Positions 9,586 to 33,321 of a stretch of 64,000 nucleotides of DNA are shown here, in pieces. The stretch is from Escherichia coli (GTDB taxonomy: Bacteria > Pseudomonadota > Gammaproteobacteria > Enterobacterales > Enterobacteriaceae): the NCBI RefSeq assembly GCF_024223415.1, contig NZ_CP100500.1, one strand, 5' to 3'. A model generated the notes under the pieces. It saw only the letters and a list, made by a program, of their open reading frames with translations, was not told where the DNA came from and did not search any database. Position 1 is the stretch's first letter, and each line of letters starts with the position of its first letter. The translations under genes were made by a program, and so were the position numbers.

Positions 9586-11300
9586 CAAAATCGCATCGTG
9601 TTCGATCGCCGATTCGCATCGTACTCGATCGCTGATTCGCATTGTCCGATCATTGATTCGCATCCTGCAGTCACTCCTGGAATTAACTTTTCTGCATAGT
9701 CTCTACTGCTGAATTTTCTTCTCAGTAGAGGTCTTGATGGCTAAAAAGAAAATCTCCCGGAGTTCTATGGAAACCTGTTTAAAAATTCTCCAACTTAAGT
9801 TCGAGCAGCATCAGACAAACCGGACTATCGCACTTACACTGAACATCAGTCCCTCGACTGTTTCCGATGTATTGTCCCGCTTTAAGAACACGTCAATATC
9901 GTGGCCTTTGCCTGAATCGATGACAACTCAACGTCTTGAGGTGCTTATCTTTCCTGGCAAGCAAGCCCCGGAAATGACGCCGGCACTGCCTGACTGGCTC
10001 TACATTGATACCGAACTACGTCGTGTGGGAGTCACTCGTCAGCTCTTATGGATGGAATACAAACATCAGGCTGGTGAATATGCTCTGGGATACTCACAGT
10101 TCTGTCGTCGTTATCTGCACTGGAAAAAAAGCGTGCGTTACTCCATGCGGCAGGAACATCGTGCTGGTGAAAAACTCTTTATCGACTTCTGTGGTCCTAC
10201 AGTCCCTGTTGTTAATCCGGAAACCGGAGAAGAACGCAGAGTGGCCATCTTTGTAGCCGTGATGGGAGCATCTAACTATACCTATGTTGAAGCGTGCGAA
10301 GGTCAGGATCTGATGTCGTGGCTAAACGCCAACAGCCGATGTCTGACCTTCCTTGGTGGTGTACCAAAACTGCTGATCCCGGATAACCTTAAAAGTGCTG
10401 TCAAAAAAGTCGATCGCTACGAACCGGTCATCAATGAGAGTTACCAAGCATTCGCAGAGCACTACAATACAGTGATACTCCCAGCAAGACCAAGAAAACC
10501 AAAGGATAAAGCGAAAGCCGAAACGGCTGTACTTATCGTCGAACGATGGCTGCTTGCCCGCATTCGCAACGAGACCTTCTTTACACTCAGGAGCCTGAAC
10601 AGTCGTCTACGCGAGTTGTTGGTAGAGCTGAATAACCGTCCCATGAAAGGATACGGCAACCAGACGCGTGCAGAGCGTTTTGCCCTGCTGGATGCCCCTG
10701 CATTATCAGCCCTGCCAGTATCAGAGTATGAGTTCGCTGAATACAAAACGGTGAAAGTTGCACCTGATTACCATGTTGAATACGCCCACCACTGGTACTC
10801 AGTACCTCATGAACTGATCGGACAACGGTTATCCCTGAAAGCCACTCAGACAGTGATCCAACTCTGGCATCAGGGGCAATGCGTGGCACAACATCCGCGC
10901 AGCCTCCATGAGTACAAGCACACGACCAACCCTCTACACATGCCTGCAGCACATCAGGCACACAGCAGATGGACACCGGAAAGTCTTCAGGAAGCAGCCA
11001 GAAAGATAGATCCTTATACAGCAATGACAGTGGATAGCATGCTGAACAGTAAACGTCATCCTGAACAGGCTTACCGGACAGTCCTGGGGCTGCTGAGCCT
11101 GAAAAAACACTATGGTCGTGAGCGTCTGGAAAAAGCCTGTCATGTTGCCCGGGAGTGCAGAACGTCGGAAAGAAGGTTCATCGAAAACCTTCTGCGTAAT
11201 AACAGGGAAAACCTTTCCCTCCGGAAAAAGAGAGGCAGACGGAGGGAAACGTATCAAAAATCCAGTTAATACGCGTGATGACTGCCTGCATCACGTTTTC
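9586..11300 (+). mobile_element. IS21-family element remnant (istA only; boundaries approximate)
   Basis: Tandem ~21-bp repeats at 9586-9670 upstream of istA; element truncated before istB. Confidence 0.45.
9734..11269 (+). CDS. istA: IS21-family transposase IstA (cognate istB absent)
   Basis: N-terminal HTH plus catalytic core typical of IstA; no IstB-like ORF follows. Confidence 0.8.
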   Translation: MMAKKKISRSSMETCLKILQLKFEQHQTNRTIALTLNISPSTVSDVLSRFKNTSISWPLPESMTTQRLEVLIFPGKQAPEMTPALPDWLYIDTELRRVGVTRQLLWMEYKHQAGEYALGYSQFCRRYLHWKKSVRYSMRQEHRAGEKLFIDFCGPTVPVVNPETGEERRVAIFVAVMGASNYTYVEACEGQDLMSWLNANSRCLTFLGGVPKLLIPDNLKSAVKKVDRYEPVINESYQAFAEHYNTVILPARPRKPKDKAKAETAVLIVERWLLARIRNETFFTLRSLNSRLRELLVELNNRPMKGYGNQTRAERFALLDAPALSALPVSEYEFAEYKTVKVAPDYHVEYAHHWYSVPHELIGQRLSLKATQTVIQLWHQGQCVAQHPRSLHEYKHTTNPLHMPAAHQAHSRWTPESLQEAARKIDPYTAMTVDSMLNSKRHPEQAYRTVLGLLSLKKHYGRERLEKACHVARECRTSERRFIENLLRNNRENLSLRKKRGRRRETYQKSS

Positions 11301-11395: not shown

Positions 11396-12391
11396 TCAGT
11401 GGCTGATTTTTTTCAGCTGTTCTTCACTCAGCCCCGTAATTTTCATGATTGTCTGGAAACCCATCCCTTCAGCCAGCATATTACGCGCGGTTTCCAGTTT
11501 GCCTTCCAGTTGTCCTTCGAGTCGACCTTCGGCACGGCCTTCCATTCTGCCTTCCATTCTGCCTTCCAGCTTACCACGCTCCATACCCTGCGCCATGCCC
11601 AGCGCAATGCCTTCCTCGCGTCCGCTCTGCTTCAGTTGTTCAGCCAGTGTCATTATGTTGCCCTCGTGCTGTGGCAGCCGCTCCGCCAGCGTCTGCAAAA
11701 ACCTTACCGTCACATGTTCACTGCCGTTCAGCAGATAGTGGAACAGAACCTGCGCCAGCTCTTCATTCAGCGAAGTCTGTATCAGCTGAACCAGCCTGTC
11801 CATCTGCAGCATGATGTCGCGGCTGCGGCTGTGTTTCATCAGCAGCGTCAGTGCCCCCATACGACGGTGCTGCATTATTTCATCGTCATCCAGTACCGTC
11901 ACGTCCACCAGGTGGAACGGTCTGGTGTAGATTTTAGCAGCAAGTTCCGGATTTCTGAAACACTCCAGCCAGTTCATGCTGTACGGGTACGGACTCCGCT
12001 CACCGTGGTAGAATAACAGCGGGATCACCAGCGGCAGCTCATGGTGCTGTTCAAAGTGACGCTGCATCGCCGCCACCGCATATCTGAGCATCCTGAACGC
12101 CATAAACGCGTTTTCCGTGCTCTGGTGTTCCGCGAGGCAATAAATATACCCCTCCTCACCGCTGACGGTCTTCATGCTGAACAGCGCATCGCACGCATAC
12201 TGTTTCAGATCCTGGTCCACAAAGGTACAGGGCTCCAGCCGCAGCGTTGACAGATCACACAGCTGCCGGTATTCCGCCGGAAGATGCAGTTCAACAAAAT
12301 CACGGGCCACCTCTGCGGAGGCCATAAACGCCCTGAAGGCAGCATCATGCGGCGTGGGGGTATTTTTCTCTTTCCTGCTGCTCACCGTCAT
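11396..12391 (-). CDS. Rpn-family recombination-promoting nuclease (YhgA-like putative transposase)
   Basis: Rpn/YhgA-like N-terminus and the characteristic C-terminal EGR(M/L)EG repeat tail; hairpin 11368-11393 just downstream. Confidence 0.75.
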   Translation of the reverse strand: MTVSSRKEKNTPTPHDAAFRAFMASAEVARDFVELHLPAEYRQLCDLSTLRLEPCTFVDQDLKQYACDALFSMKTVSGEEGYIYCLAEHQSTENAFMAFRMLRYAVAAMQRHFEQHHELPLVIPLLFYHGERSPYPYSMNWLECFRNPELAAKIYTRPFHLVDVTVLDDDEIMQHRRMGALTLLMKHSRSRDIMLQMDRLVQLIQTSLNEELAQVLFHYLLNGSEHVTVRFLQTLAERLPQHEGNIMTLAEQLKQSGREEGIALGMAQGMERGKLEGRMEGRMEGRAEGRLEGQLEGKLETARNMLAEGMGFQTIMKITGLSEEQLKKISH

Positions 12392-12506: not shown

Positions 12507-13079
12507 TTAGCGGATGATGCCGGCCATCACAGGCCAGGATAACGAAAGGCACGCGTTTCTGAATGCCCTGAGTGGCTCAGCGCCTTCAGGTGTGGCTGCA
12601 CGCACCACCCTGTAACAGCATACCACCGTACACTGCCCTTCTGGTGTGAGTGTGGTGCCGGCCTGTTGCAGTAACGCCACCAGGAGCGAATCAGCTGTTA
12701 GGCCGGATCCCGGTGGGCAAATGAGATCCTGGCTGATCAGCAACAGACAACGTATCCCGGTGCTGTCTGTCGTTTCCCGCAGCCAGCGTAACACCACCGG
12801 CAGTAACGGATATCCGGCATGGCTTCGCTGATTCAGCTGTCTGTAAAATGCCCGGTAAAACGCATGAATCTGCCCCCCGTCACGATTTCCTCCTGTTGAA
12901 TGAAGTGTGAACTGAACGGCCAGCAGACGCGGCCAGTGATCCACCGCCTGCTGAATAAAACGCCGGATTTCCACCGGCTCTGAAAGTACGGTTTCGGTTA
13001 TCTGCACGATTTGCTCTCTTTGAATGTTTCTGAACCGGTGTCGGTGCACAGGGAAACGCATACCCACACCACCACGCAT
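12507..13079 (-). CDS. YagK/YfjJ (inovirus Gp2-like) family paralogue with degenerate HUH motif
   Basis: Aligns by eye with ORF 14155-14748, but the HYHLLLL position reads IRCLLLI. Confidence 0.45.
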   Translation of the reverse strand: MRGGVGMRFPVHRHRFRNIQREQIVQITETVLSEPVEIRRFIQQAVDHWPRLLAVQFTLHSTGGNRDGGQIHAFYRAFYRQLNQRSHAGYPLLPVVLRWLRETTDSTGIRCLLLISQDLICPPGSGLTADSLLVALLQQAGTTLTPEGQCTVVCCYRVVRAATPEGAEPLRAFRNACLSLSWPVMAGIIR

Positions 13080-13125
13080 ACCCGGTCACAGCGTCACCGC
13101 CGTAAACTGCGACCGGGAACGCGCA

Positions 13126-13548
13126 TTACAGCAACGAATTGTCCGTCCCGGTATCTTCCATCAGGGGCTCCCGGCGTTCCCTGCTGTACAGCCCGCTTCC
13201 ACACCCCGGGCAGACCTTTTCTCCTTCATAGCTTTCATCACACATCACACAAAACCACCTTCTTACCTTCACCGCATAATCAGGCACCAGCATGCCCTGC
13301 AGATACACACGACGGGATTCTTTCTCTGCCGGGTCAAGCCAGGTACATCGCAGGAGAACTTTCTCAGAGACCGTCATCTGGTCATGTTCAAACCACGGTG
13401 GTTGTCCGTCCGTGCCCCGCTTAAGCGTTAACGGGCAACCACAGGACACACAGCACAAAACGTCCTGGCGGTTGTGCTCCGCAGCTTCTTTCGCGGTGAC
13501 AAAATGGCCCTTGCTGTCATTCGCCATATAGCAGTTCAGAATTCGCAT
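13126..13548 (-). CDS. Cys-rich zinc-ribbon protein, prophage-associated
   Basis: CxxC pairs and a PWFEH motif; start moved to internal ATG to remove overlap with the neighbour. Confidence 0.5.
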   Translation of the reverse strand: MRILNCYMANDSKGHFVTAKEAAEHNRQDVLCCVSCGCPLTLKRGTDGQPPWFEHDQMTVSEKVLLRCTWLDPAEKESRRVYLQGMLVPDYAVKVRRWFCVMCDESYEGEKVCPGCGSGLYSRERREPLMEDTGTDNSLL

Positions 13549-13562
13549 ATCCCCCCCTGAGC

Positions 13563-13949
13563 TTAAGCTGTCCGGGAAATACTGAAGCGCCCGGTCCGGC
13601 AGTGTGTGCAGTACTGCTCCCCATAATAATCGTGGTGACATTGTCTGCAGTGCCGGCTGGCTTTACGCACCACGGGTAAGGCATCCGGTACAAACTGCCG
13701 TAAGCGTTTAATCAGTTGCACCTCCCTGCGCTCAGGCTGTACGTAAGGACACTGCTGACCGTGCTCCGTCAGCCCTTCGTCAGTGTGTTCAAACCAGGGG
13801 CGTTCAGTGTTGTATTGCGGGTGGTATCTGAGCGCACTGCCGCAAAGGTGGCAGGTGTAGCGGTCGTAAGGTGCAGTCTGTGCGGTACGGGCACCGGTCA
13901 GACGTCCGTTGCCATCAAACGCGAGAAAAGATTTTGCGTACATCGTCAT
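13563..13949 (-). CDS. Cys-rich zinc-ribbon protein, paralogue of 13126-13548
   Basis: Shares CxxC…PWFEH with the neighbour; second CxxC cluster at the C-terminus. Confidence 0.5.
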   Translation of the reverse strand: MTMYAKSFLAFDGNGRLTGARTAQTAPYDRYTCHLCGSALRYHPQYNTERPWFEHTDEGLTEHGQQCPYVQPERREVQLIKRLRQFVPDALPVVRKASRHCRQCHHDYYGEQYCTHCRTGRFSISRTA

Positions 13950-14154
13950 ACTCCGGGGCCGCCAGACGACACGCAGGCGTCAGCCGTCCCTTTACGGGCA
14001 GCGTGGACAGAGTGTGAATGGCGGTACAGTTAAGGGTGGAAAATGGGTGGGCTGTTGTTACAGCACTGTGGGTGTCACATCATGGTGTACCAACGTAAAA
14101 AATAATCAGCAGGATGTCGCCGGACATCAGCCCGTCCTGCTGGTTTTGCCGGGC

Positions 14155-14748
14155 TCAGCCCCGACTGCAGCCGAAATTACGTTCACCGGTGCCACAGGCT
14201 TTGGTATGCTCCTTCGCCAGATAGTCAGCCCGTTCCAGTAGCTGCTGAAAGCCGGCGTCATCATCACGCGTCAGCCACAGTGCGGGATGTTCCGGAAAGG
14301 TCGCCAGCGTGGCATGGTATCCGGCATCCACACCCAGGGCACTGCACCACGCCTGTTTAATCATCCCGGCCAGTGACCCCGGAACGCGGTAATCGCCGGC
14401 ACGGCACCAGGTATCCCGGTTGACCAGCAACAGCAGGTGATAATGTTTTTTACCTTTACGCTCCCCGAACTCCCGGGCCCAGGCGTAATGCAGGGTTGTG
14501 GGATGTACGCGTTTACCTTCACGGCGCCTGCGTTTCTGGTAAGCGTAAATTCGGGCTTTCAGGGCATTGACGAAGCGGGATATCACCGCAGCATCGGTCT
14601 CTGCGGGGTGCTCCGGCAGACGCAGATCCACCTGGAGCGCTGTCAGGCGGGGATGCACCGCCAGTGCCTGCTGCACCGTCTCACGGATACGCTTCTGCCA
14701 GAAGCTGTTGTACTTGTGTATCATGGTTGAATCTCCTCCGTGACTCAC
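14155..14748 (-). CDS. YagK/YfjJ-family protein (inovirus Gp2-like, HUH-motif replication-initiator-like)
   Basis: HYHLLLL HUH-type motif; resembles CP4-type prophage YagK/YfjJ proteins. Confidence 0.65.
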   Translation of the reverse strand: MSHGGDSTMIHKYNSFWQKRIRETVQQALAVHPRLTALQVDLRLPEHPAETDAAVISRFVNALKARIYAYQKRRRREGKRVHPTTLHYAWAREFGERKGKKHYHLLLLVNRDTWCRAGDYRVPGSLAGMIKQAWCSALGVDAGYHATLATFPEHPALWLTRDDDAGFQQLLERADYLAKEHTKACGTGERNFGCSRG

Positions 14749-15167
14749 AGACGTTACTTAAGGAAGAAGATGAGCAACAGGCTACACGTACGATAAAAGA
14801 CATTTGGGTCATGAATACACGATCTGGATGGACGACATAAAGGTGATGATCTGCTCAAACCAACCAGCGTTTATGATCGATGCGACAGACAGAAGGAATG
14901 AACTACTACAATAAATAAAATCTGTCGCTGTGTGGCAAGGAAGATTTTCTTCAGGAGTGCTGGCTTATTGGGATTTTTAACACAATTTAGAGTGAGTTCA
15001 ATCAGCCACAAATCTGGATTCCTATGTCCGGATTTTTACCACAATCCCCTTATTGATTTTTATTAATCATTCACAATCTGTGATCTAGCTCGATTGCGAT
15101 TTGTATTTGACTTAATATAATCACCATGATTGTATTAAATCAAATTATAACAACAGGCGTAAAAACC

Positions 15168-16121
15168 ATGAACATTAAAAAATCAATAGAACGAGTACCC
15201 GGCGGTATGATGGTTGTACCACTGGTGATTGGCGCCATTATCAATACCTTTTCACCACAAGTGCTGGAGATCGGCGGGTTCACCACCGCGTTGTTCAAAA
15301 ACGGCGCTGCTCCTCTGATTGGTGCCTTCCTGCTCTGTATGGGAGCAGGGATCAGCGTGAAAGCCGCACCTCGGGCGTTGTTTCAGGGGGGGGCAATAAC
15401 CCTGACCAAACTGCTTGTCGCCATTGCGATTGGCCTAGGTGTTGAGCATCTGTTCGGTCAGGAAGGTATCTTCGGATTGAGCGGCGTGGCAATCATTGCG
15501 GCAATGAGTAACTCAAACGGCGGACTTTACGCGGCGCTAGTGGGAGAGTTTGGCAACGAACGCGATGTCGGCGCTATTTCAATTCTATCTCTGAATGATG
15601 GACCGTTCTTTACAATGATCGCGCTGGGAGCTGCTGGTATGGCGAACATACCAATCATAGCGCTGGTCGCAGTGCTGATTCCGCTGGTGATAGGGATGCT
15701 CCTCGGTAACCTTGATCCCAACATGCGTGACTTCCTGACCAAAGGTGGACCACTATTGATCCCGTTCTTCGCGTTTGCGCTGGGTGCGGGGATCAACCTT
15801 GAAATGCTTCTGCAGGGTGGGCTGGCTGGGATTCTGCTTGGCGTACTGACCACCTTTATCGGCGGTTTCTTTAACATTCGCGCCGACCGTCTGGCTGGGG
15901 GAACCGGTATTGCCGGCGCGGCGGCTTCCAGCACAGCCGGAAATGCGGTAGCGACGCCGCTGGCGATTGCTCAGGCAGACCCTTCGCTGGCTGAAGTGGT
16001 TACCTCTGCCGCACCGCTGATTGCCGCATCGGTGATCACAACCGCAATTCTGACGCCAGTCCTAACCTCTCGGGTCGCCAAAAATCGGGCGCGTCAGATC
16101 TCTGAGGAGAAAAAAGTATGA
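15168..16121 (+). CDS. KdgT-family permease (2-keto-3-deoxygluconate transporter-like)
   Basis: MNIKKSIERVPGGMMVVPL matches the KdgT N-terminus; polytopic membrane protein. Confidence 0.75.
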   Translation: MNIKKSIERVPGGMMVVPLVIGAIINTFSPQVLEIGGFTTALFKNGAAPLIGAFLLCMGAGISVKAAPRALFQGGAITLTKLLVAIAIGLGVEHLFGQEGIFGLSGVAIIAAMSNSNGGLYAALVGEFGNERDVGAISILSLNDGPFFTMIALGAAGMANIPIIALVAVLIPLVIGMLLGNLDPNMRDFLTKGGPLLIPFFAFALGAGINLEMLLQGGLAGILLGVLTTFIGGFFNIRADRLAGGTGIAGAAASSTAGNAVATPLAIAQADPSLAEVVTSAAPLIAASVITTAILTPVLTSRVAKNRARQISEEKKV

Positions 16122-17389
16122 AGATGATCGTTATCGCCGACGACTTTACGGGTTCTAACGATACTGGCGTGCAGTTGGCGAAGAAAGGAGCTCGCACGGA
16201 AGTTTTGCTAACGCCGGAGCAAAAGCCTTCGCGTCGCACGGATGTACTGGTGCTCAACACTGAAAGTCGTGCGGTGCCGGCCGCACAGGCAGCGAAAGCG
16301 GTAACGCATGCTCTGGCTCCCTGGTGCAAAGGAGAGATGCTCCCGCTGGTATACAAGAAAATCGACTCCACATTTCGCGGCAACGTCGGCGCGGAAGTGA
16401 CGGCAGCGATGCGAGCCGCTAAACGGACTCTGGCAGTGATCGCTGCGGCGATCCCAGCTGCAGGACGCACAACCCGTAACGGATTATGCCTGGTCAACGG
16501 TACGCCTCTACTGGAAACCGAGTTTGCCAGCGATCCGAAAACGCCGGTTTTCTCCTCGCGCATTGCGGAACTGATCGCGCTACAAAGCGATATCCCGGTA
16601 CATGACGTGTCGCTTGATGACGTGCGACGCGGACAGCTCAGCGCCCTTCTTAAAGCTTTTGCAGCCCAGGGGGAATGCATGGTGGTAGTCGATGCGGTGG
16701 AAGATCACGACCTGTCTCTGATTACCCAGGCTATTTGTGAACAGGCTACATTTCCTCTACTGGTCGGTGCGGCAGGACTGGCGAATGCGCTACCGGTCAG
16801 AATGTTCATGCAGGAGAAGAAGGCTCTGCCAGTGCTAGTAGTTGCAGGATCGATGAGCGAAGCCACCCGGCGGCAGGTTGAAAAAGCGCTCACCCAGGCA
16901 CACGCCAACGTGGTGGACATTGATGTCTCACGACTGATTTCCTCGAAGGCCGAACAGGAAATAGCCTCTGTGGTGGAACAGGCCAGCGTGTTGCTCAGTC
17001 ACCAGAAACACACGATTCTTCGCACCAGCCGTAGTGCGGATGACCGACTGATGATCGATGCTCTGTGTACTGAAGCAGGCGTAGGCCGCCAACAGCTTGG
17101 CGAGATGCTCAGCCAATGTCTAGGGATCATTACACTGCGCATTATCGAACAGGCGCGTATTGGCGGCCTGTTCCTGACCGGAGGAGATATTGCCACTGCT
17201 GTTGCCAGTGCGCTTGGTGCTGAAGGCTATCGCATCCAGAACGAGGTCGCCCCATGCATTCCCTGCGGGATGTTTGTGAACAGCGAAATCGACGATCTTC
17301 CGGTGATCACGAAAGCTGGCGGATTCGGTTCAGACAGCACCCTTTGTGATGCACTTTATTTTATTGAGGAGATGTACAGTGGTAACTAA
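16118..17389 (+). CDS. Four-carbon acid sugar kinase, DUF1537 family (OtnK/DtnK-like)
   Basis: MKMIVIADDFTGSNDTG N-terminus typical of the family; overlaps the KdgT stop. Confidence 0.75.
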   Translation: MKMIVIADDFTGSNDTGVQLAKKGARTEVLLTPEQKPSRRTDVLVLNTESRAVPAAQAAKAVTHALAPWCKGEMLPLVYKKIDSTFRGNVGAEVTAAMRAAKRTLAVIAAAIPAAGRTTRNGLCLVNGTPLLETEFASDPKTPVFSSRIAELIALQSDIPVHDVSLDDVRRGQLSALLKAFAAQGECMVVVDAVEDHDLSLITQAICEQATFPLLVGAAGLANALPVRMFMQEKKALPVLVVAGSMSEATRRQVEKALTQAHANVVDIDVSRLISSKAEQEIASVVEQASVLLSHQKHTILRTSRSADDRLMIDALCTEAGVGRQQLGEMLSQCLGIITLRIIEQARIGGLFLTGGDIATAVASALGAEGYRIQNEVAPCIPCGMFVNSEIDDLPVITKAGGFGSDSTLCDALYFIEEMYSGN

Positions 17390-18362
17390 AACAATAGCGA
17401 TTACGATGGGCGATCCGGCAGGTATCGGTCCAGAAATAATTGTCAAGGCACTTTGTGAAAATGAACTTAGCGGCGCACCGCTGGTAGTGGTGGGATGCCT
17501 ACAGACCCTACAACGTTTGCAAACCAAAGGACTGGCAGAAGGAGTGACTTTTCGCGCAATTGACAATGTCACGCAGGCGCGATTTTCACAGGGCGTGATT
17601 CACGTAATCGATGAGCCGCTGGCACAGCCCCAAGCGCTGGAGCCAGGTAAAGTGCAGGCCGAGGCGGGAGATCTGGCCTACCGTTGCGTAAAACGTGCGA
17701 CGGAGTTGGCACTGAAAGGTGATGTACACGCCATCGCCACTGCGCCGCTGAATAAAGAAGCACTACATCAGGCGGGACATTATTATCCGGGACATACCGA
17801 ACTGCTGGCGACGTTGACCGGAAGCCGTGACTATGCGATGGTGCTTTACACCGACAAGCTGAAGGTGATTCACGTTTCGACCCATATTGCGTTACGCAAG
17901 TTTCTCGACACTCTCAACAGGCAACGCGTGGAGACTGTTATAGGCATCGCGGATCACTTCCTTAAGCGTATTGGCTTAGCCCAACCGCGCATCGCCGTAG
18001 CCGGGATCAATCCCCATGCAGGCGAAAACGGTCTGTTTGGCGATGAAGAAATTCGCATTGTATCGCCAGCCATTGAAAACATGAGGGCGAAAGGAACAGA
18101 CGTTTTCGGACCATGTCCACCGGATACCGTGTTTTTGCAGGCATACGAGGGTCATTATGACATGGTGGTGGCGATGTACCACGATCAGGGACATATTCCG
18201 CTCAAACTGCTTGGATTCTATGATGGCGTGAATATCACCGCCGGTCTGCCGTTTATTCGTACCTCTGCTGATCACGGGACTGCGTTTGATATTGCCTGGA
18301 CGGGCAAAGCAAAATCTGAGAGCATGGTCATATCGATTAAACTGGCAATGCAACTGGCATAA
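17379..18362 (+). CDS. PdxA-family NAD-dependent dehydrogenase (PdxA2-like 4-phospho-hydroxy-acid dehydrogenase)
   Basis: IAITMGDPAGIGPE plus MYHDQGH/ADHGTAFD motifs; GTG start overlapping the kinase stop. Confidence 0.75.
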   Translation: MVTKTIAITMGDPAGIGPEIIVKALCENELSGAPLVVVGCLQTLQRLQTKGLAEGVTFRAIDNVTQARFSQGVIHVIDEPLAQPQALEPGKVQAEAGDLAYRCVKRATELALKGDVHAIATAPLNKEALHQAGHYYPGHTELLATLTGSRDYAMVLYTDKLKVIHVSTHIALRKFLDTLNRQRVETVIGIADHFLKRIGLAQPRIAVAGINPHAGENGLFGDEEIRIVSPAIENMRAKGTDVFGPCPPDTVFLQAYEGHYDMVVAMYHDQGHIPLKLLGFYDGVNITAGLPFIRTSADHGTAFDIAWTGKAKSESMVISIKLAMQLA

Positions 18363-18371
18363 TTTCCTGTT

Positions 18372-19142
18372 ATGAAAGGACAACACCGTCTGGATAAAAT
18401 AGTGGCGTATTTGAAAAATCATACGCTGGCGACCGTGGAACAACTTGTAGATGTGGTAGAAGCATCGCCCGCGACGATCCGACGTGATCTGATCAAACTG
18501 AATAAACAGGGTGTGATCAGCCGCAGCCACGGAGGTGTTGCCCTGCGGCGTTTTGAACCCGCGCAACCCACAACCAATGAAAAGCAATTACGATCGCCTG
18601 CGGAAAAGCGGGCGATCGCGCGTTTTGCAGCCTCAATAGTACAGGCCGGCGACGCAGTGGTTTTGGACGCCGGCACCACCATGCTGGAGTTGGCTAAATG
18701 CCTGACTCATTTGCCACTCAGGGTGATCACGGTCGATCTGCATATCGCCCTGTTTTTGTCCGAATTTCCCCAGATTGAAGTCACCATTGTGGGTGGTCGT
18801 ATTGATGAAAGCAGTCAGTCCTGTATCGGCGACTTTGGTCGCAAAATGTTACGTAGCGTCTACCCTGATATCGCATTCATGAGCTGTAACACCTGGAGTA
18901 TGGAAAAAGGTGTCACAACTCCGACGGAGGACAAAGCAGGACTCAAGCAGGAGATTATCGCTAACGCCCAACGTAAGGTTCTACTGGCCGACAGCAGCAA
19001 ATATGGCGCGCATTCGCTGTTCAACGTAACGCCGCTGAGCAGTTTTACCGATGTTGTGACCGATGTGCATCTGCCACGCCCTGTCCAGGCAGAGCTGGAA
19101 GCCCACTCCATTGCCCTTACGCTAGTCCAGCCTGGATTTTAA
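18372..19142 (+). CDS. DeoR-family transcriptional regulator
   Basis: N-terminal HTH ([22 protein letters not shown]) with DeoR-type C-terminal domain. Confidence 0.8.
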
Positions 19143-19429
19143 AGGGACCGTTCACAGTTATCAGGACGGACGGCATGTTGCGCCAACAGTCTTACCTGTG
19201 AACTGTATAGTGAACGTCTTTATGCTTATGGCAGTAAATCCACCAGTTGCAAACATCCCCCGCTGACCGGGGGAAAGTATTCATGTACCTGTTGTTGATT
19301 TACTGATGTCCATATCGGACATTCAGCATGATACGCGTTGTCATCCGGAACACGACTCTCTGTCGTATAAATATACCCCCGGATGAACGCTGTTTCGGAT
19401 GTGCGTACCTGGGGGCCTCAGGTGACAGC

Positions 19430-20464
19430 TCAGACGGTGGTCATATCAATAACGATTCTGCCGTTGATTTTTCCTGCGCGCATGCGGCCGAATACAGAGT
19501 TGATATTTTCCAGTGGCTCCGTGGTGACCTCTGCATGAACCTTGTGCTGACCGGTAAAGAAGAGAGCTTCCTGCAAATCCTTACGGGTCCCTACAATAGA
19601 ACCCCTCACAGTTATACCATCAAGCACCATATCGAATATCGACAAATCAAATTTCCCCGGCGGCAGACCGTTCAGTACCATCGTTCCGCCACGACGCATC
19701 ATACCTGTGGCCTGAGAAAATGCGGCTGGTGACACTGCCGTGACCAGTACACCATGTGCACCACCAGTTTCTGCATGAATGCGCTGTACCGGATTTTCAC
19801 GCACGGCGTTCACCACAACAGAGGCTCCAAGTCTGCAGGCCAGCTCCAGTTTACTGTCATCCACATCAACAGCCGCAACATTCATCCCCATCGCGGCGGC
19901 ATACTGAACGGCCAGATGTCCCAGTCCTCCGACACCGGAAATCACCACCCATTCCCCCGGGCGGGCTTCCGTCATTTTCAGTCCTTTGTAAACAGTCACG
20001 CCGGCGCAAAGCACGGGGGCTATATGGTGAAAATCAACATTATCCGGAAGAAGTCCGACATAATTCGCATCCGCAAGACAGTATTCCGCAAACGTGCCAT
20101 TCACCGAATAACCAGCATTTTGTTGGGAATGACACAGGGTTTCCCAGCCCCCCAGGCAATGCTCACAGTAGCCGCATGCAGAATACAGCCAGGGAACCCC
20201 TACCCGATCGCCTTCCCTGATATGTTTTACGCCGGCACCCACGGCCACCACGTGACCTACCCCTTCATGTCCCGGAATAAACGGCGGACGTGGTTTGACT
20301 GGCCAGTCACCATCTGCAGCATGAAGATCGGTATGGCATACCCCCGTGGCTGCTATTCTGACCAGAATTTTTCCGGGTTCAATGGCCGGCACGGTAACTT
20401 CATCAATAACCAGCGGTTTTCCAAATTCTGTGACAATAGCGGCTTTCATGGTTTTGAGTTGCAT
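19430..20464 (-). CDS. Zinc-dependent alcohol dehydrogenase (AdhP-like)
   Basis: GVCHTDLH and GHEGVG zinc-binding motifs, GLGGLG NAD-binding motif. Confidence 0.85.
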
Positions 20465-20494
20465 TTTTGATTCCTCTGTTAGCGAAAGACAAAA

Positions 20495-22015
20495 TCAGAA
20501 CAGACCAGCCGGTGATGTGTCATAACTGACCAGAATATTTTTAACCTGCTGATAGTGGCTGAGAGCCAGCTTATGTGTTTCCCTGCCAATACCAGAATTT
20601 TTATACCCTCCGAATGCGGCATGTGCCGGGTAATAATGGTAACAGTTTGTCCATATACGCCCGGCCTGGATCCCTTTTCCCATTCTCCATGCCCGGTTTA
20701 TATCTGTCGTCCACACACCCGCGCCAAGTCCGTATTCCGTATCGTTGGCGATACTGAGCGCCTCTTCTTCTGTCCTGAACGTGGTTATGCCAATGACAGG
20801 TCCGAAGATTTCCTCCCTGAAACATCGCATCTGATTATGGCCTTTGATCAGGGTCGGCTGAATGTAGAAGCCATTCTGTAAATGTCCCTCGTGGATGACA
20901 GGTGCACCACCGGTGAGTATTTCTCCGCCCTCATCCCTTGCTATGCGGATCCAGGAAAGGATCCTGTCATACTGTTCCCGGGAAGCCTGTGCACCTATCA
21001 TTGTGTCTGTATCAAACGGATCTCCACGGCGGATATTTTCGATTTTATGCAGAACCCGCTCCACAAAAGCCTGAAAGATCGTTTCCTGAACCAGGATACG
21101 TGAGGGACAGGTACAGACCTCCCCCTGATTAAAGAAGCCAAGTACAGCACCTTCAACCGCCTTTTCAAGGTAGCTGTCATCTCCGTTCATCACATCGTCA
21201 AAGAAAATATTGGGGGATTTACCGCCCAGTTCGACTGTACTGGGGATAATATTTTCAGCTGCGCAGGAGAGAATATGCCGCCCGACGGGCGTGGAGCCTG
21301 TGAATGCAATTTTATCGATACGACGGCTGCGGGCCAGAGCTTCACCAGCTTCCTGCCCGAAACCATGAACAACGTTAAGCACACCCGGCGGTAAAAGATC
21401 ACCGATTAATTCCAGCAGTACGCAAATACCCAGAGGGGTCTGTTCTGCGGGCTTCAGTACCACACAGTTTCCTGCCGCAAGTGCCGGTGCCAGTTTCCAG
21501 GCCGCCATCAGCAAAGGAAAATTCCATGGAATAATCTGACCGACCACTCCCACAGGTTCATAGATGTGCCATGCCATCATATCCCTGCCCACCTCTGCTG
21601 CACTGCCTTCCTGCGCCCGGAGACAGCCCGCAAAATAACGGAAGTGGTCAACTGCCAGTGGAATATCGGCCGCGAGTGTTTCGCGTACCGGCTTGCCGTT
21701 ATCCCAGGTTTCTGTCAGTGCCAGGATTTCTGTGTTCGCTTCAATACGATCGGCAATGGCAAGCAGTATATTCGCCCGCTCCGTGACCGGTGTTGCCCCC
21801 CATCGGGCTCTGGCCTCATGTGCCGCAGTGAGCGCGCTTTCAATATCCATCTCACCCGAACGTGGGAATTCAGCAATATTTTCTCCGGTAACAGGAGTGG
21901 TGCTGGTGAACCATCGCCCGCCGACAGGATCAACAAACTGACCGTTGATAAAGTTACCGTAGCGTTTTTTGAATGACACTTTTGAGCCGGGTAATCCCGG
22001 ATGTATGTATTTCAT
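20495..22015 (-). CDS. NAD-dependent aldehyde dehydrogenase (AldB-like)
   Basis: Collinear by eye with E. coli AldB; ELGGKSP and catalytic Cys context GEVCTCPSR. Confidence 0.9.
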   Translation of the reverse strand: MKYIHPGLPGSKVSFKKRYGNFINGQFVDPVGGRWFTSTTPVTGENIAEFPRSGEMDIESALTAAHEARARWGATPVTERANILLAIADRIEANTEILALTETWDNGKPVRETLAADIPLAVDHFRYFAGCLRAQEGSAAEVGRDMMAWHIYEPVGVVGQIIPWNFPLLMAAWKLAPALAAGNCVVLKPAEQTPLGICVLLELIGDLLPPGVLNVVHGFGQEAGEALARSRRIDKIAFTGSTPVGRHILSCAAENIIPSTVELGGKSPNIFFDDVMNGDDSYLEKAVEGAVLGFFNQGEVCTCPSRILVQETIFQAFVERVLHKIENIRRGDPFDTDTMIGAQASREQYDRILSWIRIARDEGGEILTGGAPVIHEGHLQNGFYIQPTLIKGHNQMRCFREEIFGPVIGITTFRTEEEALSIANDTEYGLGAGVWTTDINRAWRMGKGIQAGRIWTNCYHYYPAHAAFGGYKNSGIGRETHKLALSHYQQVKNILVSYDTSPAGLF

Positions 22016-22081
22016 GACATTCTCCCTGAGCGAAATTCAGTGTACGTTCATGCAGGAACAAAACTGTTGCAGATAACCTTA

Positions 22082-22098
22082 AGCAACACCCATGCCAC
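22082..22098 (-). promoter_or_regulatory. Candidate sigma-54 (-24/-12) promoter for the aldehyde/alcohol dehydrogenase operon
   Basis: Minus strand reads TGGCAT-N5-TTGCT with GG…GC spacing as in the TGGCAC-N5-TTGCW consensus, about 70 bp upstream of the ALDH start. Confidence 0.5.
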
Positions 22099-22256
22099 CA
22101 AGTTGTTACACACAGTTAACAACAACAAAAACAGCCTGTTAGCCCAAAAAACAGACAACCGAAAAAGAATCACCACAGGAAAATGTGAAGCAAATAAAAC
22201 ATTTTCGATACACAAATGATACAATCATGCAACACAACTGTTGCAAGGATTGAATT

Positions 22257-24017
22257 ATGTTACGTAAGAGATCTGCAACTGAGTATCAGAAAGAAAAAGC
22301 CACGCTTCCGGTACTCCTGAGTGCATCATGGCAACGATGTACCGGCTATCATCTCGAAAGAGACAGTGCGCCCTCAGTATGTGTTGAGCATGACCAGTTA
22401 CGGGATCTCCGGTCGCACAACGGCTGGTCAGATATCCTTAAACAACAGTTCCCTGAATCAGGCTCTGATTTTTTCAGTAAATCACTGGTACTGGTTATTG
22501 CTGATGCATCAGGCGTGATCCTTGACACCTGCGGTAACAGGAAATTTCTGAATAAAGCCGAAGGTTTTTTCCTTTCCCCCGGTCATATCTGGACCGAACA
22601 ACACTACGGCACAAATGCCATAGGTACAGCGCTGGCTGTACAGCAGGCATGTGAAGTGAGGGGGAGTGAACACTGGCTCAACAGAAATTCAGGACTCTGT
22701 TGTTCGGCATACCCGCTATTTTCACCTGAAGGTTATCTTGCCGGTATCCTGGATTTATCGTCACCGGCAGATTTACCATTCCGTGATGCACCGGTGATTA
22801 TCAGGCGGTTTGTTCAGCAAACCGAATATCTCTGGACAACAAAACGACTCAATGCAGAGAGATATCTGTTGCATCTCCGCCGGGAAAACAACGCAGACAT
22901 CAGTGACAGTAGTGAATTTTTACTGGTCATTGAAGGTGATGTGATTGTTGGTGCCAACAGGCTCGCTGTGAATGAATTTGGCCTTCTTCCACCTTATGAT
23001 TCCGTCACTCTGGATACTCTCTTTACCGGGGGTAACAGACAGTCTGATTTTCTGGAATCGTGCAGCGGACAACGTTATCTGCAGCGACGCACCCGCCCCC
23101 ACAGAGCTGCCGTGAATCTGTCACCCCGCCTCCGTTTTCCATCGCGGCGTGAAGCGGACAACGAAAAAAAGGAAAAAGCACAGCAGTTAATCAACCACGG
23201 AATATCGGTCTGTATTACAGGAGAAACCGGAACGGGGAAAGAATATCTGGCGCGGGAGCTTCACCGTAACAGTTGCCGGAAAAACGGCAACTTTGTTGCA
23301 ATTAACTGTGCTGCCCTGCCGGAACACCTGACAGAATCAGAGCTTTTCGGATACGCTCCGGGAGCATTTACCGGCGCGAATTCCAGAGGTTATCCCGGGA
23401 AAATCAGGGAAGCCAGTGGCGGGATCCTGTATCTTGATGAAATCGGCGATATGCCGGCAACACTTCAGACACGGTTATTACGTGTACTGCAGGACAAAAA
23501 AGTGATTCCTCTGGGTTCAAACACGCCTGTGGACGTTGACTTCGTACTGATATCAGCCACGCACCGTGATCTGGATAAGATGTGTGCAGAAGGGACTTTT
23601 CGGGATGATCTGTTATACCGAATACGGGAATTTCACCTGCATCTTCAGCCACTTCGGGAAAGAAGCGACCTGGGTAAACTGATAGTTAAACTCTGGGAAG
23701 AATCTGAACAGGAGATGAAAAAAACCGTCATGCTGGGCAGTGAAATTATTGAAGATTTAAAACGACATTCATGGCCGGGGAATGTACGTCAGTTGCTGAA
23801 TGTGCTCAGAGTTCTGATGGCGCTGGCACGACCTGGAGGAAGAATCACTCCAGGTGATCTCAGCGTAGTGTCTGAAGATATTTGTCATATCCATAATACC
23901 GTAAAGATAGTGACCGAAAGAAAAATAGTGGATGAGGCCGGAGGAAACATCAGCAGAGCGGCAAAAATGCTGGGTATTTCCCGAAGCACATTATACAGAC
24001 GACTGAAAAGTCTGTAA
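22257..24017 (+). CDS. Sigma-54-dependent transcriptional activator (AcoR-like)
   Basis: AAA+ Walker A GETGTGKE, GAFTGA signature, C-terminal HTH; divergent from the ALDH operon. Confidence 0.85.
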   Translation: MLRKRSATEYQKEKATLPVLLSASWQRCTGYHLERDSAPSVCVEHDQLRDLRSHNGWSDILKQQFPESGSDFFSKSLVLVIADASGVILDTCGNRKFLNKAEGFFLSPGHIWTEQHYGTNAIGTALAVQQACEVRGSEHWLNRNSGLCCSAYPLFSPEGYLAGILDLSSPADLPFRDAPVIIRRFVQQTEYLWTTKRLNAERYLLHLRRENNADISDSSEFLLVIEGDVIVGANRLAVNEFGLLPPYDSVTLDTLFTGGNRQSDFLESCSGQRYLQRRTRPHRAAVNLSPRLRFPSRREADNEKKEKAQQLINHGISVCITGETGTGKEYLARELHRNSCRKNGNFVAINCAALPEHLTESELFGYAPGAFTGANSRGYPGKIREASGGILYLDEIGDMPATLQTRLLRVLQDKKVIPLGSNTPVDVDFVLISATHRDLDKMCAEGTFRDDLLYRIREFHLHLQPLRERSDLGKLIVKLWEESEQEMKKTVMLGSEIIEDLKRHSWPGNVRQLLNVLRVLMALARPGGRITPGDLSVVSEDICHIHNTVKIVTERKIVDEAGGNISRAAKMLGISRSTLYRRLKSL

Positions 24018-27603: not shown

Positions 27604-29955
27604 TCAGAATAACCCCCCTTCACCATCAGCCACAATCCTGTATCCCATCGCCTTATAACCCCGCTGGCGTTTATCCCACATTCTGAGCAGCACAGGATAC
27701 GCTTTATCCACAAAATCAATGATCCTGACATCGCTTTTACCGGTATACTGTCTGTGCAGACGCCCTGCATACTGCTGTAACGTCCCTTTCCATGACACCG
27801 GCATCGCCAGAATCAGCGTATCCAGCGGTGGGTGGTCAAATCCCTCACCAATAAGTTTACCGGTTGACAACAGAATGCGGGGAGAATCCTGAGGAAGCGC
27901 ATTTAACTCAGAAATCAGCATTGTACGCTTTTTTTTCGATAACCGGCCATGAAGCACAAAGGGTGACAGGTTCAGTGAATGCATTACTGATGCTATATCA
28001 TCCAGATGCTCTTTTCGTTCAGTCAGTACCAGAACTTTACGTCCCTGCGCGAATGCCTTCATGGCTTCTTCAGCTATCGCCACAGTCCTGTCATGATCAA
28101 GCGCAATTTCTCTGAAAATATCCTGGATCCCCGCATCCGATGGTAAATGTCCGGATGTAAAACGGAAACGGAGCTGCACTTCCAGATTATGCGGACTTTC
28201 CTTCGGGCTGGCCGCTGTGTGACGAAGGGCACCACAGTACATAAAAATGATGGGATGCAGACCATCCCGTCGGACAGGCGTTGCCGTCAGTCCCAAAAGA
28301 TATCTGGCATTCGTTTCCTTCAGAACAGCAGAAAATGAAAACGCTCCAGCATGATGGCACTCATCAACTATGACTTGCCCGTAATTCCTGACCACAGGTG
28401 CAACTTTGCCATGCCTGAACAGAGACTGCACAACAGCAATATCAATATTGCCAGAGGGGTTATGTTTGCCCCCTCCGATAATACCAATACCGTCACTGGT
28501 CTGCAGAAATACCCCAAGCCGCTCCTGCCATTGCTTTAATAACTCAGTCCGGTGTACCAGTACAAGTGTATTAACTCTCCGTCGTGCAATCACAGCCGCG
28601 GCGGTAACCGTCTTACCAAAAGCCGTTGGCGCACAAAGTACACCAGAATCATAACGGAGCAATACCGAAACAGCCTCTTCCTGATCCGCTCTGAGGTTTC
28701 CCGTGAACACAGCATGACATTCTGTACCTGCAAATCGTTCATCGATGATTTCTGCAGCAATATTGTTGTCACTGAGGAAGGATAATGCGCTGTCCAGACA
28801 TCCACGGGGTAACGCAATGTGTTGCGGATAATTTTCCGCACAACCTGTAACCCGGGGTTTATTCCAGACAGACATTCTCATGGCCTGAGCCTTATAAAAC
28901 ACAGGATTAGGAAACGCAGCCAGTCGAATAAGCCGGTTGGCCAGCGGCTGAGGTAATTGCGCTTTTTCGAAATAGATCTGGTTTGCCAGCGTGATTCTCA
29001 GCGGCTCAGCAACAGAAACCGTCAGTTTGTTTTCTGATGATGTTTTCCACGGCGTGCTCAGGTCTTCGTCGGTAAAGTTCACATCCAGTGGATGAATACT
29101 TCCTGTAGCCCGTAATATTGTCGGTTCTATATCCTGCACATTCATCGGGATCACCGATGCCAGGAATGCCCACTGATCAGGATAAGGCTGAAAATTCATA
29201 TCAACAAAAACACTGCCTCCCGATTCACGCGGTCTTTTTTGCAGAGGTAACGCGATGAGATTGCCGAATCCCCCTTTTGGCATGGTATCCTGATTAGGAA
29301 ATAATCGGTCATAAGAACTCAACCGCAGTTGCCGGGAACGGCTACACGTATGGCTGATAACGGCTGTCCCCAGTCGGCGTGCATCACGGGCCGAAACCCG
29401 GGAAGCAAAAAATATCCAGACATGCGCCCCCTGACGTGAGCGGGATATTTCCAGCGCTGCGGGTATCCCCAGCTCATCACAGGATCGCATGAATGCGGAT
29501 GCATCCTTCTGCCATTCAGCATCATCAAAATCAACAGCCAGAAAATAACAGGAATCGTCTTCCAGCAGCGGATATACCCCGACTGTATGGTAGCCTGCGA
29601 GATGACGGTAAATGACAGGATCGGATACAGGTAGCAACTGACGGTGTGCGCAGTCACCGCATTTTATCCCGGGCTTACCGCAGATTCCCGGCTTCCATTC
29701 GTTAGCACAGGCCGGCGAATACCCTGATTTACCACTGACCTGACTTTCCCAGCGAAGGGCCCATACATCATCACGCCCACGAAACAACCGACGAAATAAT
29801 GAAACCTTCTGTTCAGCAGATAATGCGGAAACATGATGTACAGAACGCTGCGGTTTACGTCGCCATTCAATCCCGTGAGCTTCAAGTAATGAGGCCAGAC
29901 GGGCATTTTCTGCCCTCAGTGCAGCTAATTCGTCGTTATCAGATTGACACACCAT
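27604..29955 (-). CDS. Putative primase-polymerase / SF2 (DEAD/DEAH-type) helicase fusion protein
   Basis: C-terminal helicase motifs I AFGKT, II DECHH, III TAT, VI QYAGRLHR; N-terminal zinc ribbon CGKPGIKCGDCAHRQ and acidic DFDD motif. Confidence 0.75.
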   Translation of the reverse strand: MVCQSDNDELAALRAENARLASLLEAHGIEWRRKPQRSVHHVSALSAEQKVSLFRRLFRGRDDVWALRWESQVSGKSGYSPACANEWKPGICGKPGIKCGDCAHRQLLPVSDPVIYRHLAGYHTVGVYPLLEDDSCYFLAVDFDDAEWQKDASAFMRSCDELGIPAALEISRSRQGAHVWIFFASRVSARDARRLGTAVISHTCSRSRQLRLSSYDRLFPNQDTMPKGGFGNLIALPLQKRPRESGGSVFVDMNFQPYPDQWAFLASVIPMNVQDIEPTILRATGSIHPLDVNFTDEDLSTPWKTSSENKLTVSVAEPLRITLANQIYFEKAQLPQPLANRLIRLAAFPNPVFYKAQAMRMSVWNKPRVTGCAENYPQHIALPRGCLDSALSFLSDNNIAAEIIDERFAGTECHAVFTGNLRADQEEAVSVLLRYDSGVLCAPTAFGKTVTAAAVIARRRVNTLVLVHRTELLKQWQERLGVFLQTSDGIGIIGGGKHNPSGNIDIAVVQSLFRHGKVAPVVRNYGQVIVDECHHAGAFSFSAVLKETNARYLLGLTATPVRRDGLHPIIFMYCGALRHTAASPKESPHNLEVQLRFRFTSGHLPSDAGIQDIFREIALDHDRTVAIAEEAMKAFAQGRKVLVLTERKEHLDDIASVMHSLNLSPFVLHGRLSKKKRTMLISELNALPQDSPRILLSTGKLIGEGFDHPPLDTLILAMPVSWKGTLQQYAGRLHRQYTGKSDVRIIDFVDKAYPVLLRMWDKRQRGYKAMGYRIVADGEGGLF

Positions 29956-30115
29956 ACCCTGAATCCATATTTCTTATAACCTGCCCCGGGATACTGCGCT
30001 GCACACGACAGAAACTCGTGTCGTCCCCCGGCACTGACAGCTCCCCGTACCTTACGATACATTAACGTTATCCCCTCACGATCCCTTACGGCAATCTTGC
30101 TTTATTCTCCCCCTT

Positions 30116-30679
30116 TCAGTTGTGTCGCGGTCGGCCGCGGTTACTTTTTTCAGGTAGTCTGCTACGCATCAGAATAATACCGTGTTCTTTCTGATCCTGT
30201 TTAGCCAGGTAGCTAAGGGCGTAACGTAAGTCATCTACCGCAGATTTATTACTATAGCGAATTACGTGATCAATACGCACCGGGTATTTATCTTTAGCCC
30301 GGCACAGGTGAAAATAACCATCCCCTTCCGTGATCCGCCTCCAGATATCTCCCAGCAGCCTGGATATCCGGTAAGATTTCTTGTGCCGTTGTCCATCCAG
30401 ATAGCCGATAAAATGAATATGAAGTCCCTTGTTTTGTGTATATTCCATAACCCAGTAATATCCTGCCAGAATCGTTTGGGTTTCGCTAAGTAAGCGCTGC
30501 ATCTCAATACACATACTGTGCTTACAGGAATGACCGAAACTGGGCGTGTCTTTCCTGTAGGCAAAATCAATTCTGAAAGGTAACAGTTTAGAAAAACGTT
30601 GAAACATACCTTCCATGTGTTTATTCACGTCTTTCAGAATCGTGAAATTCATTTCGTAATTGGGATTGGCATTGTACAT
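30116..30679 (-). CDS. HUH-motif protein, inovirus Gp2-like / YfjJ-YagK family
   Basis: GLHIHFIGYLD HUH-type motif; alignable with ORF 14155-14748. Confidence 0.65.
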   Translation of the reverse strand: MYNANPNYEMNFTILKDVNKHMEGMFQRFSKLLPFRIDFAYRKDTPSFGHSCKHSMCIEMQRLLSETQTILAGYYWVMEYTQNKGLHIHFIGYLDGQRHKKSYRISRLLGDIWRRITEGDGYFHLCRAKDKYPVRIDHVIRYSNKSAVDDLRYALSYLAKQDQKEHGIILMRSRLPEKSNRGRPRHN

Positions 30680-31628
30680 TTCATAGTCCTTACTTTATGA
30701 AGGTTGCAGGAAGAAGGAATTACGTAAATACTGAGGGCACAGAAAGGCCGTACCACGGCATTAATAAAAGAGATAACCAGCAGCACAGACAACCTGATAA
30801 AAATGTTTTGTATTACCTCATTACAGCAACGAGGTAATATTTCAGAATACAGTGAGACTCTCTTAAACTGAGGACCAGTACGACTTACAACGGTAAAAAC
30901 ACACCTCATATAATTGAGTTTCAGGAAGCACCATTCAATTACTGTCTCCCTGACATTCACAAAAGTCAGTATCGGGTAGCTACAGGCAACATCGCTATTG
31001 ATACTCCCGCACCATTAAATAAAAACAGAGACTCTGCAGAGAGAGCCTACAGATATTTAACCTCTCCACATAAGAATAATGGTATACAGTCCCCACACCA
31101 TCAAAAGATTGCTTCAGGATAATATTTCCTCATACCTGTAAACAGTACTGAGCCATAACACCAAAACTGAAGATAACATGCACTGATACGTACTTAACAT
31201 CAGTTACGTATCAGACACACATCAGTGGATTAGCTCCCTCAACATCACAGCGAACATTATAATTTATCGCACTACTAAACACTCTCTGGCTGTATGAAGG
31301 CACATGCATTACGCATCTACGGAATGGTCAGCATACAGAGGAGTGACATTGTAAACAGATAACAGATAACATAACTCCCATTAATAATACTAATTAACCT
31401 AAATTATTTATTGAATACGAGAACAATGAGGGAACCTCCTCATCCAGGACTAATGCCAGCAATATCCTGAGCAACACTCTATCCAATAGTAAATAATGGT
31501 TATAACTGTTATATTTACTGACTGACCTGTACCAGCGTTCTGTAATACAACAACGCTGAGATGCTAATGGCATAAGTCTCCTCCGCTATTTACGGAGGAG
31601 ACTATATGTTACTCAACGATTAAGTCAT

Positions 31629-33062: not shown

Positions 33063-33321
33063 AAATACCTCAATTTTAGTTAATAAATCAGTAAAGTAGC
33101 AGATATTCCCGCTATAATAGCCAAAATAGCTGCTATGCATAGCCGATATGTTCTGAAAAATACAGTAATCGGGCATACCTGATGTTGAACAAAACGATAA
33201 GGTTGATTCAATTCAGCCTGTATTATTAGCTACGTAACATCATTCACATTGCTCACTCCTGACATCTTCTGATGATTATTTCAACGACGCCTTATTCATG
33301 GTCGTTTTCCTTTTTCATGAA

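Follow-up and report, generated by a model that had tools for sequence, protein, structure and literature searches.

A four-gene HUH and zinc-ribbon block, probably from the backbone of a CP4-57-type island, in an Escherichia coli genome

A stretch of 64,000 nucleotides (nt) of Escherichia coli DNA (NCBI RefSeq assembly GCF_024223415.1, contig NZ_CP100500.1; its full length is called "the window" in what follows) carries, at positions 12,507 to 14,748, a block of four co-directional genes, here named A to D: two genes for zinc-ribbon proteins lie between two genes for proteins related to the HUH (histidine-hydrophobe-histidine) nucleases. An initial annotation, made from the letters of the sequence, described the block as a duplicated two-gene module with one degenerate HUH copy and likened it to conflict systems. 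All four open reading frames (ORFs) are on the minus strand, where that annotation had placed them:

14155 to 14724, minus strand: gene A, 189-amino acid (aa) HUH protein of the YagK/YfjJ ("inovirus Gp2") type; ORF to 14748
13563 to 13943, minus strand: gene B, 126-aa protein with two zinc modules; ORF 13563 to 13949
13126 to 13548, minus strand: gene C, 140-aa paralogue of B; ORF to 13641
12507 to 13007, minus strand: gene D, 166-aa protein of UCP030791 (PF27752), predicted HUH-fold paralogue of A; ORF to 13079

(A note on numbering: these lengths follow from the probable true starts. Gene A begins at the ATG at 14724, with the ribosome-binding site GGAGGAG before it; gene C begins at 13548, 14 nt past the stop codon of gene B; the start used by the gene D family is the GTG at 13007.)

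The four proteins and their paralogy

The motifs that had been quoted for the block are all there: A has HYHLLLL and D has IRCLLLI, and B and C share CxxC...PWFEH. The ORF of A carries "KKHYHLLLLVNRD" and "DYLAKEHTK", that of D "GIRCLLLISQD", that of B "CHLCGS...RPWFEH" and that of C "CVSCGC...PPWFEH". Protein A belongs to the Pfam family YagK_YfjJ_C (PF11726; 9.3e-45, 153 bits against a cut-off of 25.8) and has a weak, sub-threshold match (26.4 bits) to REP_ORF2-G2P. B matches DUF7828 (4.9e-31) and Zn_ribbon_11 (1.2e-6), and C the same two families, both above the cut-off. D has no match in the local copies of Pfam and NCBIfam; the precomputed annotation of exactly this protein labels it PF27752 "UCP030791", a database entry that comes without a function, and its sequence agrees with that membership. 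Its homologue at one of the loci used for comparison (these loci are cited by L numbers where they must be told apart; this one is L003) is named "UCP030791 family putative phage-derived protein" in RefSeq, and the homologues of D form 99 clusters at 90% identity, all of them PF27752, with every species-named cluster assigned to Escherichia. Other searches were sparing: nothing in NCBIfam for any of the four; a single match in PHROGs, of A to a family of unknown function; and none below E 0.2 when A and the zinc-ribbon families were compared with PDB sequence profiles. A repeat search of the block returned short repeats at chance level, besides a 21-nt echo between A and D at the LLL(V/I) motif, and a scan of the block for promoters and terminators gave counts close to the shuffled expectation.

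The proposal of two paralogous pairs holds up under pairwise alignment and profile comparison. B and C are 28% identical over 121 aa (BLASTP, E 2e-13) and find each other in a tblastn search of the whole six-frame window at E 1e-10. A and D are 30% identical over 114 aa (BLASTP, E 3e-6; E 6e-4 at the scale of the whole window), and hhalign aligns them at E 1.4e-4 to 3.3e-4 (probability 38-53%) with IRCLLLI under HYHLLLL. A hidden Markov model (HMM) of the D family matches 65 of the 65 A-family proteins tested (best E 6e-7), and proteins in the D position in other genera match both models, that of the D family at 1e-12 to 1e-19 and that of the A family at 4e-11 to 7e-8. Judged by these comparisons, the homology of B and C is strong; that of A and D is moderate but consistent across methods.

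The description as a duplicated two-gene module fares less well. In transcript order the block reads HUH-Zn-Zn-HUH' (that is, X-Y-Y'-X'), which is not what an HUH-Zn unit repeated in tandem would give. B proteins are 61-88% identical to one another and C proteins 43-85%, with 24-32% between B and C, so that B and C are distinct orthologous groups; orthologues of A are 64-67% identical, against the roughly 30% over 114 aa that A shares with D. The paralogues are thus less alike than are the orthologues of different genera, and together with the order X-Y-Y'-X' this speaks against a recent tandem duplication of a two-gene unit.

What distinguishes D from A? An intact HUH protein accompanied by a paralogue without the HUH motif is what the alignments bear out, and they add a point that had gone unremarked: D also lacks the catalytic YxxK motif. 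In the A family H94, H96, Y168, L169, K171 and K175 (in the numbering of the 189-aa protein, in which HYH is residues 94-96 and YLAK is residues 168-171) are invariant from Escherichia to Edwardsiella, Serratia and Pectobacterium, and A is, by its motifs, apparently catalytically competent. In the D family neither histidine nor the YxxK motif is kept in any member examined. The position of HxH is occupied by R-C (RCLLL) in Escherichia (IRC in this copy) and by CKM, YKI, RKI or YQM in Hafnia, Tenebrionibacter, Siccibacter, Superficieibacter and a metagenome-assembled genome; the C-terminal third of D cannot be aligned to A and has no conserved tyrosine. Because the loss is common to all of the D proteins examined, it is ancient and family-wide rather than a lesion of this copy.

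D has conserved motifs of its own, FxQQAVDHxPxL and P..LRW. Ratios of nonsynonymous to synonymous substitution (dN/dS, pairwise NG86) are 0.11-0.22 for A, 0.05-0.29 for B and 0.08-0.27 for C; for D they are typically 0.25-0.35, ranging over 0.15-0.62 across all pairs and 0.15-0.35 at unsaturated distances. Intact copies of D are, by this measure, under purifying selection (dN/dS about 0.3) and not in neutral decay, and "degenerate" is accordingly too simple a word for D. At the protein level D nevertheless changes about three times as fast as A: for the same element pairs dN is 0.87-0.98 against 0.27-0.29.

The zinc-binding residues of B and C are well kept. Over 38 relatives C33 (about 90%), C36, H55, C68 (about 90%), C100, C103, C113 and C116 are conserved, and in B they make up two modules, an N-terminal CxxC...WFEH...C and a C-terminal CxxC...CxxC ribbon, whose Cys, His and Phe are invariant in the alignment.

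Gene order, distribution and the island setting

A scan for the A family in one genome per species yielded 23 loci. The order A-(AlpA-like helix-turn-helix protein, mini zinc ribbon)-B-C-D is found in Hafnia paralvei, Tenebrionibacter intestinalis, Siccibacter colletis, Superficieibacter and an Enterobacteriaceae metagenome-assembled genome, and partial versions of the order A-B-C-D are found at other loci. Since the four-gene order recurs in at least five other enterobacterial genera, the block is not a local duplication; by this comparison it is old. E. coli has a second arrangement as well: a divergent Gp2-like gene, a 191-aa protein, an AlpA-like helix-turn-helix protein, a Zn_ribbon_11-like ORF of about 35-45 aa, and D, with neither B nor C.

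The small zinc-ribbon ORF is unannotated (L002:12686-12919, minus strand; L016:5605-5841; L023:6881-7111; L020:6889-7197). It encodes about 35-45 aa with the pattern W-x-C-x2-C-x3-Y-C-G-x3-C-P-x-C, and it lies just upstream of D or B where the operon lacks one or both of the full-length zinc-ribbon genes. Each of the arrangements inspected therefore has a Zn_ribbon_11 module alongside D.

Wherever the flanks of an inspected locus are intact, D comes downstream of a Gp2-like gene and ahead of variable cargo: a gene for an Rpn nuclease (in the window, L002 and L003), dndB-E (L011-L013), K88-type fimbriae (L015-L018) or sugar operons (L001, L010). The block itself is probably not cargo. Relatives in E. 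coli lie in CP4-57-like islands, with YfjI, an AlpA-type helix-turn-helix protein, Hha, a YfjP/YeeP-type GTPase, Ag43, DUF932, antirestriction proteins, RadC and YeeU/CbtA as neighbours. A typical island of this type runs from a P4-like integrase through AlpA, YfjI and the YfjJ/Gp2-like gene to the cargo, and then on to GTPase, Ag43, RadC and CbtA.

The block is common in E. coli. By megablast 3876 of 5426 complete genomes (about 70%) match at least part of it, the median number of places per genome being two; the best of the complete-genome records match A, B and C together at 86.8% identity, and D-like DNA is present in 2878. The same four genes with the same flanks occur on ten draft-assembly contigs. 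These most likely come from E. coli, since the identical C protein and close relatives of D are deposited under that name. Outside chromosomes the genes are scarce: C matches 28 of 72,556 plasmid records, several of them megabase-sized, and none of the phage records, while A matches one of 50,697 phage records. That one, an UNVERIFIED 4.5-kb low-coverage contig, is probably host DNA and was discounted. The initial annotation had named, as an outcome that would count against its proposal, a common inert remnant of a known prophage with conserved flanking genes. For the most part this is what is seen: the block is a common component of CP4-57-like islands, with YfjI, AlpA, Hha, GTPase and Ag43 as recurrent neighbours. 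D, however, is more than a degenerate copy, its intact versions being under purifying selection.

Directly 5' of the Gp2-like gene in other copies there is a hairpin (L001:13493-13544, minus strand; L021:5952-6003; equivalent positions in L022-L027) that is absent at 14725-14785 of the window. The Shine-Dalgarno GGAG is inside its 3' arm. Compensatory changes are seen across genera (CCGGT/ACCGG against CCAGT/ACTGG; GGTTAT/ATAACC against CCGTATG/CATACGG). With the hairpin specified manually and counted on an alignment that excludes the window, 85.7% of cells are paired, as against 27-50% in slid controls, and four pairs have changed on both sides; RNAalifold, run on the alignment of A leaders with the window included, returned no structure. 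The hairpin could be an element of translational control or the DNA substrate of the HUH protein.

What the operon may do

We favour, with moderate confidence, a reading in two parts: the four genes are a conserved operon of the CP4-57-type island backbone, and their products belong to a mechanistic class in which a nickase works with accessory DNA-processing proteins. HUH enzymes nick single-stranded DNA at hairpin origins, form a phosphotyrosine link and start rolling-circle replication or conjugative transfer. The mechanism that we infer, which extends to nicking, its substrate, the parts played by B, C and D and the interaction of A with D, would be as follows: 1) On an excised island circle A, acting as a single-tyrosine HUH nickase, would cut one strand at a hairpin origin. 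2) It would become linked to the 5' end through Tyr168. 3) The nick would lead to rolling-circle replication, or the strand would be handed over for transfer. 4) B and C might bind DNA by way of their two zinc modules and serve as accessory or specificity factors. 5) D, with its HUH fold presumably kept but its metal-binding histidines and tyrosine gone, would have no catalytic activity and would either partner A or compete with it; it might, for instance, form a heterodimer that has one active site, or be a regulator that occupies the origin. We are far less sure of what B, C and D each do than of the joint reading.

Known systems offer points of comparison. YfjJ and YagK, of the K-12 cryptic prophages CP4-57 and CP4-6, share with A the Pfam family YagK_YfjJ_C and the HUH and YxxK motifs. 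The A family also shares the island position of YfjJ, after AlpA and YfjI and before the cargo, which is the boundary between backbone and cargo; the order in CP4-57 of K-12 is intA-yfjH-alpA-yfjI-yfjJ-cargo(abpBA, rnlAB)-yfjP and so on. In K-12, however, abpBA follows yfjJ directly, with no zinc-ribbon genes or D in between, and YfjJ has 208 aa rather than the 189 of A. With the HUH replication proteins and relaxases (phage gpII/gpA, plasmid Rep, and the relaxases of integrative mobilizable elements that are related to rolling-circle replication proteins) A has in common the HUH metal-binding motif and the single-tyrosine helix motif; unlike theirs, the genes of the block are essentially absent from phages and rare on plasmids. 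To our knowledge the classical Rep systems have not been described as having a dead paralogue of their own or a pair of zinc-ribbon proteins. Rolling-circle initiators are reported to double as relaxases in integrative elements (PMC5714925, PMC5357655). Gp2-like proteins are among the frequent core genes of the Pseudomonas genomic islands, characterized by int and AlpA, that are transduced by a jumbo phage (PMC12595487, 2025). The logic of that backbone is the same (a core of tyrosine integrase, AlpA, Gp2-like protein and RadC, and cargo that varies and is often defensive); hosts and integration sites are not the same, and the paper makes no mention of zinc-ribbon partners or of a dead Gp2 paralogue.

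Several considerations weigh against the nickase-and-accessories reading: 1) In CP4-57 of K-12 and in a second island in the window (described below) a Gp2-like gene is present but B, C and D are missing; the three are therefore dispensable there. 2) The leader hairpin overlaps the ribosome-binding site, and so may simply control translation. 3) A search of the literature found no functional study of YfjJ, YagK, UCP030791, DUF7828 or Zn_ribbon_11. 4) Several E. coli copies (L001, L009, L010) have a D that is broken into fragments or lacks annotation. 5) The structure model of D, which is ferredoxin-like and has SIRV1 Rep among its best matches, is of moderate confidence and its matches are those of a generic fold; a Foldseek comparison of the model with viral structures gave none at E <= 1e-3. 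6) The model of C is confident but has no PDB relative, and hence none that would point to DNA binding; the sole hint of DNA binding for B and C is a weak match to CoiA_N (E 0.015).

Might the four proteins only bind DNA? The HUH-fold and zinc-ribbon proteins would then, together with AlpA, control excision or the expression of cargo, and nothing would be cleaved. In other genera, as in the second E. coli arrangement, the operon includes a gene for an AlpA-like protein, the operon stands at the boundary between backbone and cargo, and D suggests that the fold can persist without catalysis. A pure DNA binder would, however, not need the invariant HxH and YLAK that A keeps across genera, and we consider this reading unlikely.

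That D is a duplicate of A in the course of decay, and the whole block a functionless remnant of a dead prophage-like element, seems about equally improbable. This copy does lack its leader, promoter and island partners, D is less constrained than A and broken in the three copies just mentioned, and elements of the CP4 type have classically been called cryptic prophages. Yet D is intact in at least six genera, with its conserved motifs and with dN/dS values at unsaturated distances that are not those of neutral drift; A, B and C are likewise constrained (0.05-0.29 taken together); and the HUH and YxxK motifs are missing from every D examined, rather than scattered among copies as random decay would have it.

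Least probable of the three is the stand-alone conflict system directed against phages or other mobile genetic elements, in which an active HUH nuclease effector is checked or guided by its dead paralogue and by zinc-ribbon sensors: neighbouring genes of defence type (Rpn here, dnd in L011-L013, and the primase-helicase of a TOTE system after the other Gp2-like gene of the window) and the rapid change of D, which would fit an arms race, speak for it, but none of A, B, C and D has a PADLOC family match at E <= 0.01, the block keeps its backbone position while the cargo downstream varies, in other genera its operon also encodes an AlpA-type excision regulator, it is present in several copies per genome as is typical of backbone genes, and D is often decayed where A, B and C are intact. 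The conflict-system pattern seen by the initial annotation is, on the same two grounds of no PADLOC match and a backbone position fixed whatever the cargo, not upheld.

The preferred reading, of a backbone operon with a nickase and its accessories, can be carried a step further, at the price of a much lower probability. A to D might constitute an undescribed machine for processing island DNA, in which D pairs with A (asymmetrically, with a single active site) or titrates the origin of A, the zinc-ribbon pair provides sequence specificity, and the fast evolution of D and C sets a recognition peculiar to each element. Taken as a whole, this more elaborate proposal is doubtful; if true, it would mean that two or more sibling islands in one cell would not cross-activate or exclude each other.

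Though real, the finding is for the most part ordinary. The four families are all in the catalogues and widely annotated, and this copy adds a further instance, a truncated one. Measured against the literature searched, what appears to be new is that UCP030791 is linked to the HUH fold, that the family has lost its catalytic residues throughout while still under selection, and that it keeps a fixed partnership with a Gp2-like gene and Zn_ribbon_11 proteins. These three points are modestly interesting and testable; they are neither surprising nor specific to the window. CP4-57-like islands are among the commonest accessory elements of E. coli and its relatives, and carry defence, adhesin and metabolic cargo. 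That their Gp2-like gene is often accompanied by two zinc-ribbon proteins and by a dead paralogue that selection has kept makes the four-protein unit testable for a part in island replication or mobilisation, and the uncharacterised family UCP030791 gains a probable fold and a context.

This copy, its flanks and a second island

The copy in the window has been separated from its island. The features that adjoin it are:

14725 to 14737, no strand: upstream breakpoint, 12 nt before the ATG of A, where the match to the common E. coli copies gives out
11396 to 12391, minus strand: Rpn-family PD-(D/E)XK nuclease (Transposase_31, 6.5e-74; TIGR01784), directly downstream of D
9734 to 11269, plus strand: IS21-family istA transposase gene (NF033546, 1.1e-85)

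The megablast match of the block ends at query position 2337, which is position 14736 of the window, and with the DNA beyond it this copy has lost the conserved leader hairpin and the native promoter of A. AlpA, YfjI and the integrase, which are present at related loci, do not adjoin A here; upstream of A there is instead an operon for KdgT, a four-carbon acid kinase, PdxA and DeoR. The copy is a stranded operon remnant between this unrelated sugar-acid operon and Rpn/IS21 DNA. It can be seen as a fragment of backbone that marks an old island junction, not as a new defence system.

The initial annotation was right to place an Rpn nuclease and an IS21 remnant beside the block: the ORF list of the window has none of istB size after istA. 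The Rpn gene is cargo, outside the operon. It adjoins D also in L002 and L003, and dnd or K88 fimbrial genes follow other D genes. D and Rpn together are 97.4% identical to DNA of E. coli AR_0085, where D follows the genes of the second arrangement; this match to a locus with different upstream genes makes the block of the window a recombinant mosaic, with recombination within or just upstream of D. The C-terminal segment of the Rpn protein is repetitive, (EGR/KLEG)n, and produces spurious matches to FliH.

The sugar-acid operon is part of an accessory metabolic cluster (15126-24017) with a KdgT-like permease, a four-carbon acid sugar kinase, a PdxA-like dehydrogenase, a DeoR regulator, an alcohol dehydrogenase, an aldehyde dehydrogenase and a sigma-54 activator. 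Positions 14900-18900 have no megablast match in the 5,426 complete E. coli genomes; the core genes of the window are E. coli-like.

The statement that there is no integrase nearby is correct locally; a tyrosine integrase is found about 22 kb away, in a second and more complete island backbone:

27604 to 38325, minus strand: separate backbone of CP4-57 type, adjoining clpA
37123 to 38325: tyrosine integrase of P4 type, abutting the 3' end of clpA
33719 to 34114: AlpA-like helix-turn-helix protein
31629 to 33176: YfjI
30116 to 30679: third Gp2-like gene, predicted to be active, with intact HIH and YLAK
27604 to 29955: archaeo-eukaryotic primase (AEP) primase-helicase of a TOTE conflict system, 783 aa (PADLOC PrimPol, 8.9e-134)

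Despite the P4-type integrase that abuts the 3' end of clpA, ARAGORN detected no tRNA or tmRNA at 38326-38903 or elsewhere in the 64 kb; in K-12, serW lies downstream of clpA. Between the integrase and the AlpA-like gene, in a stretch of 31-32% GC, an ORF of 608 aa (35112-36938, plus strand) has no match in Pfam or PADLOC and is a candidate for an uncharacterised cargo or defence gene. A homologous "hypothetical protein" of 605 aa occupies the same place in ETEC1716 (L008).

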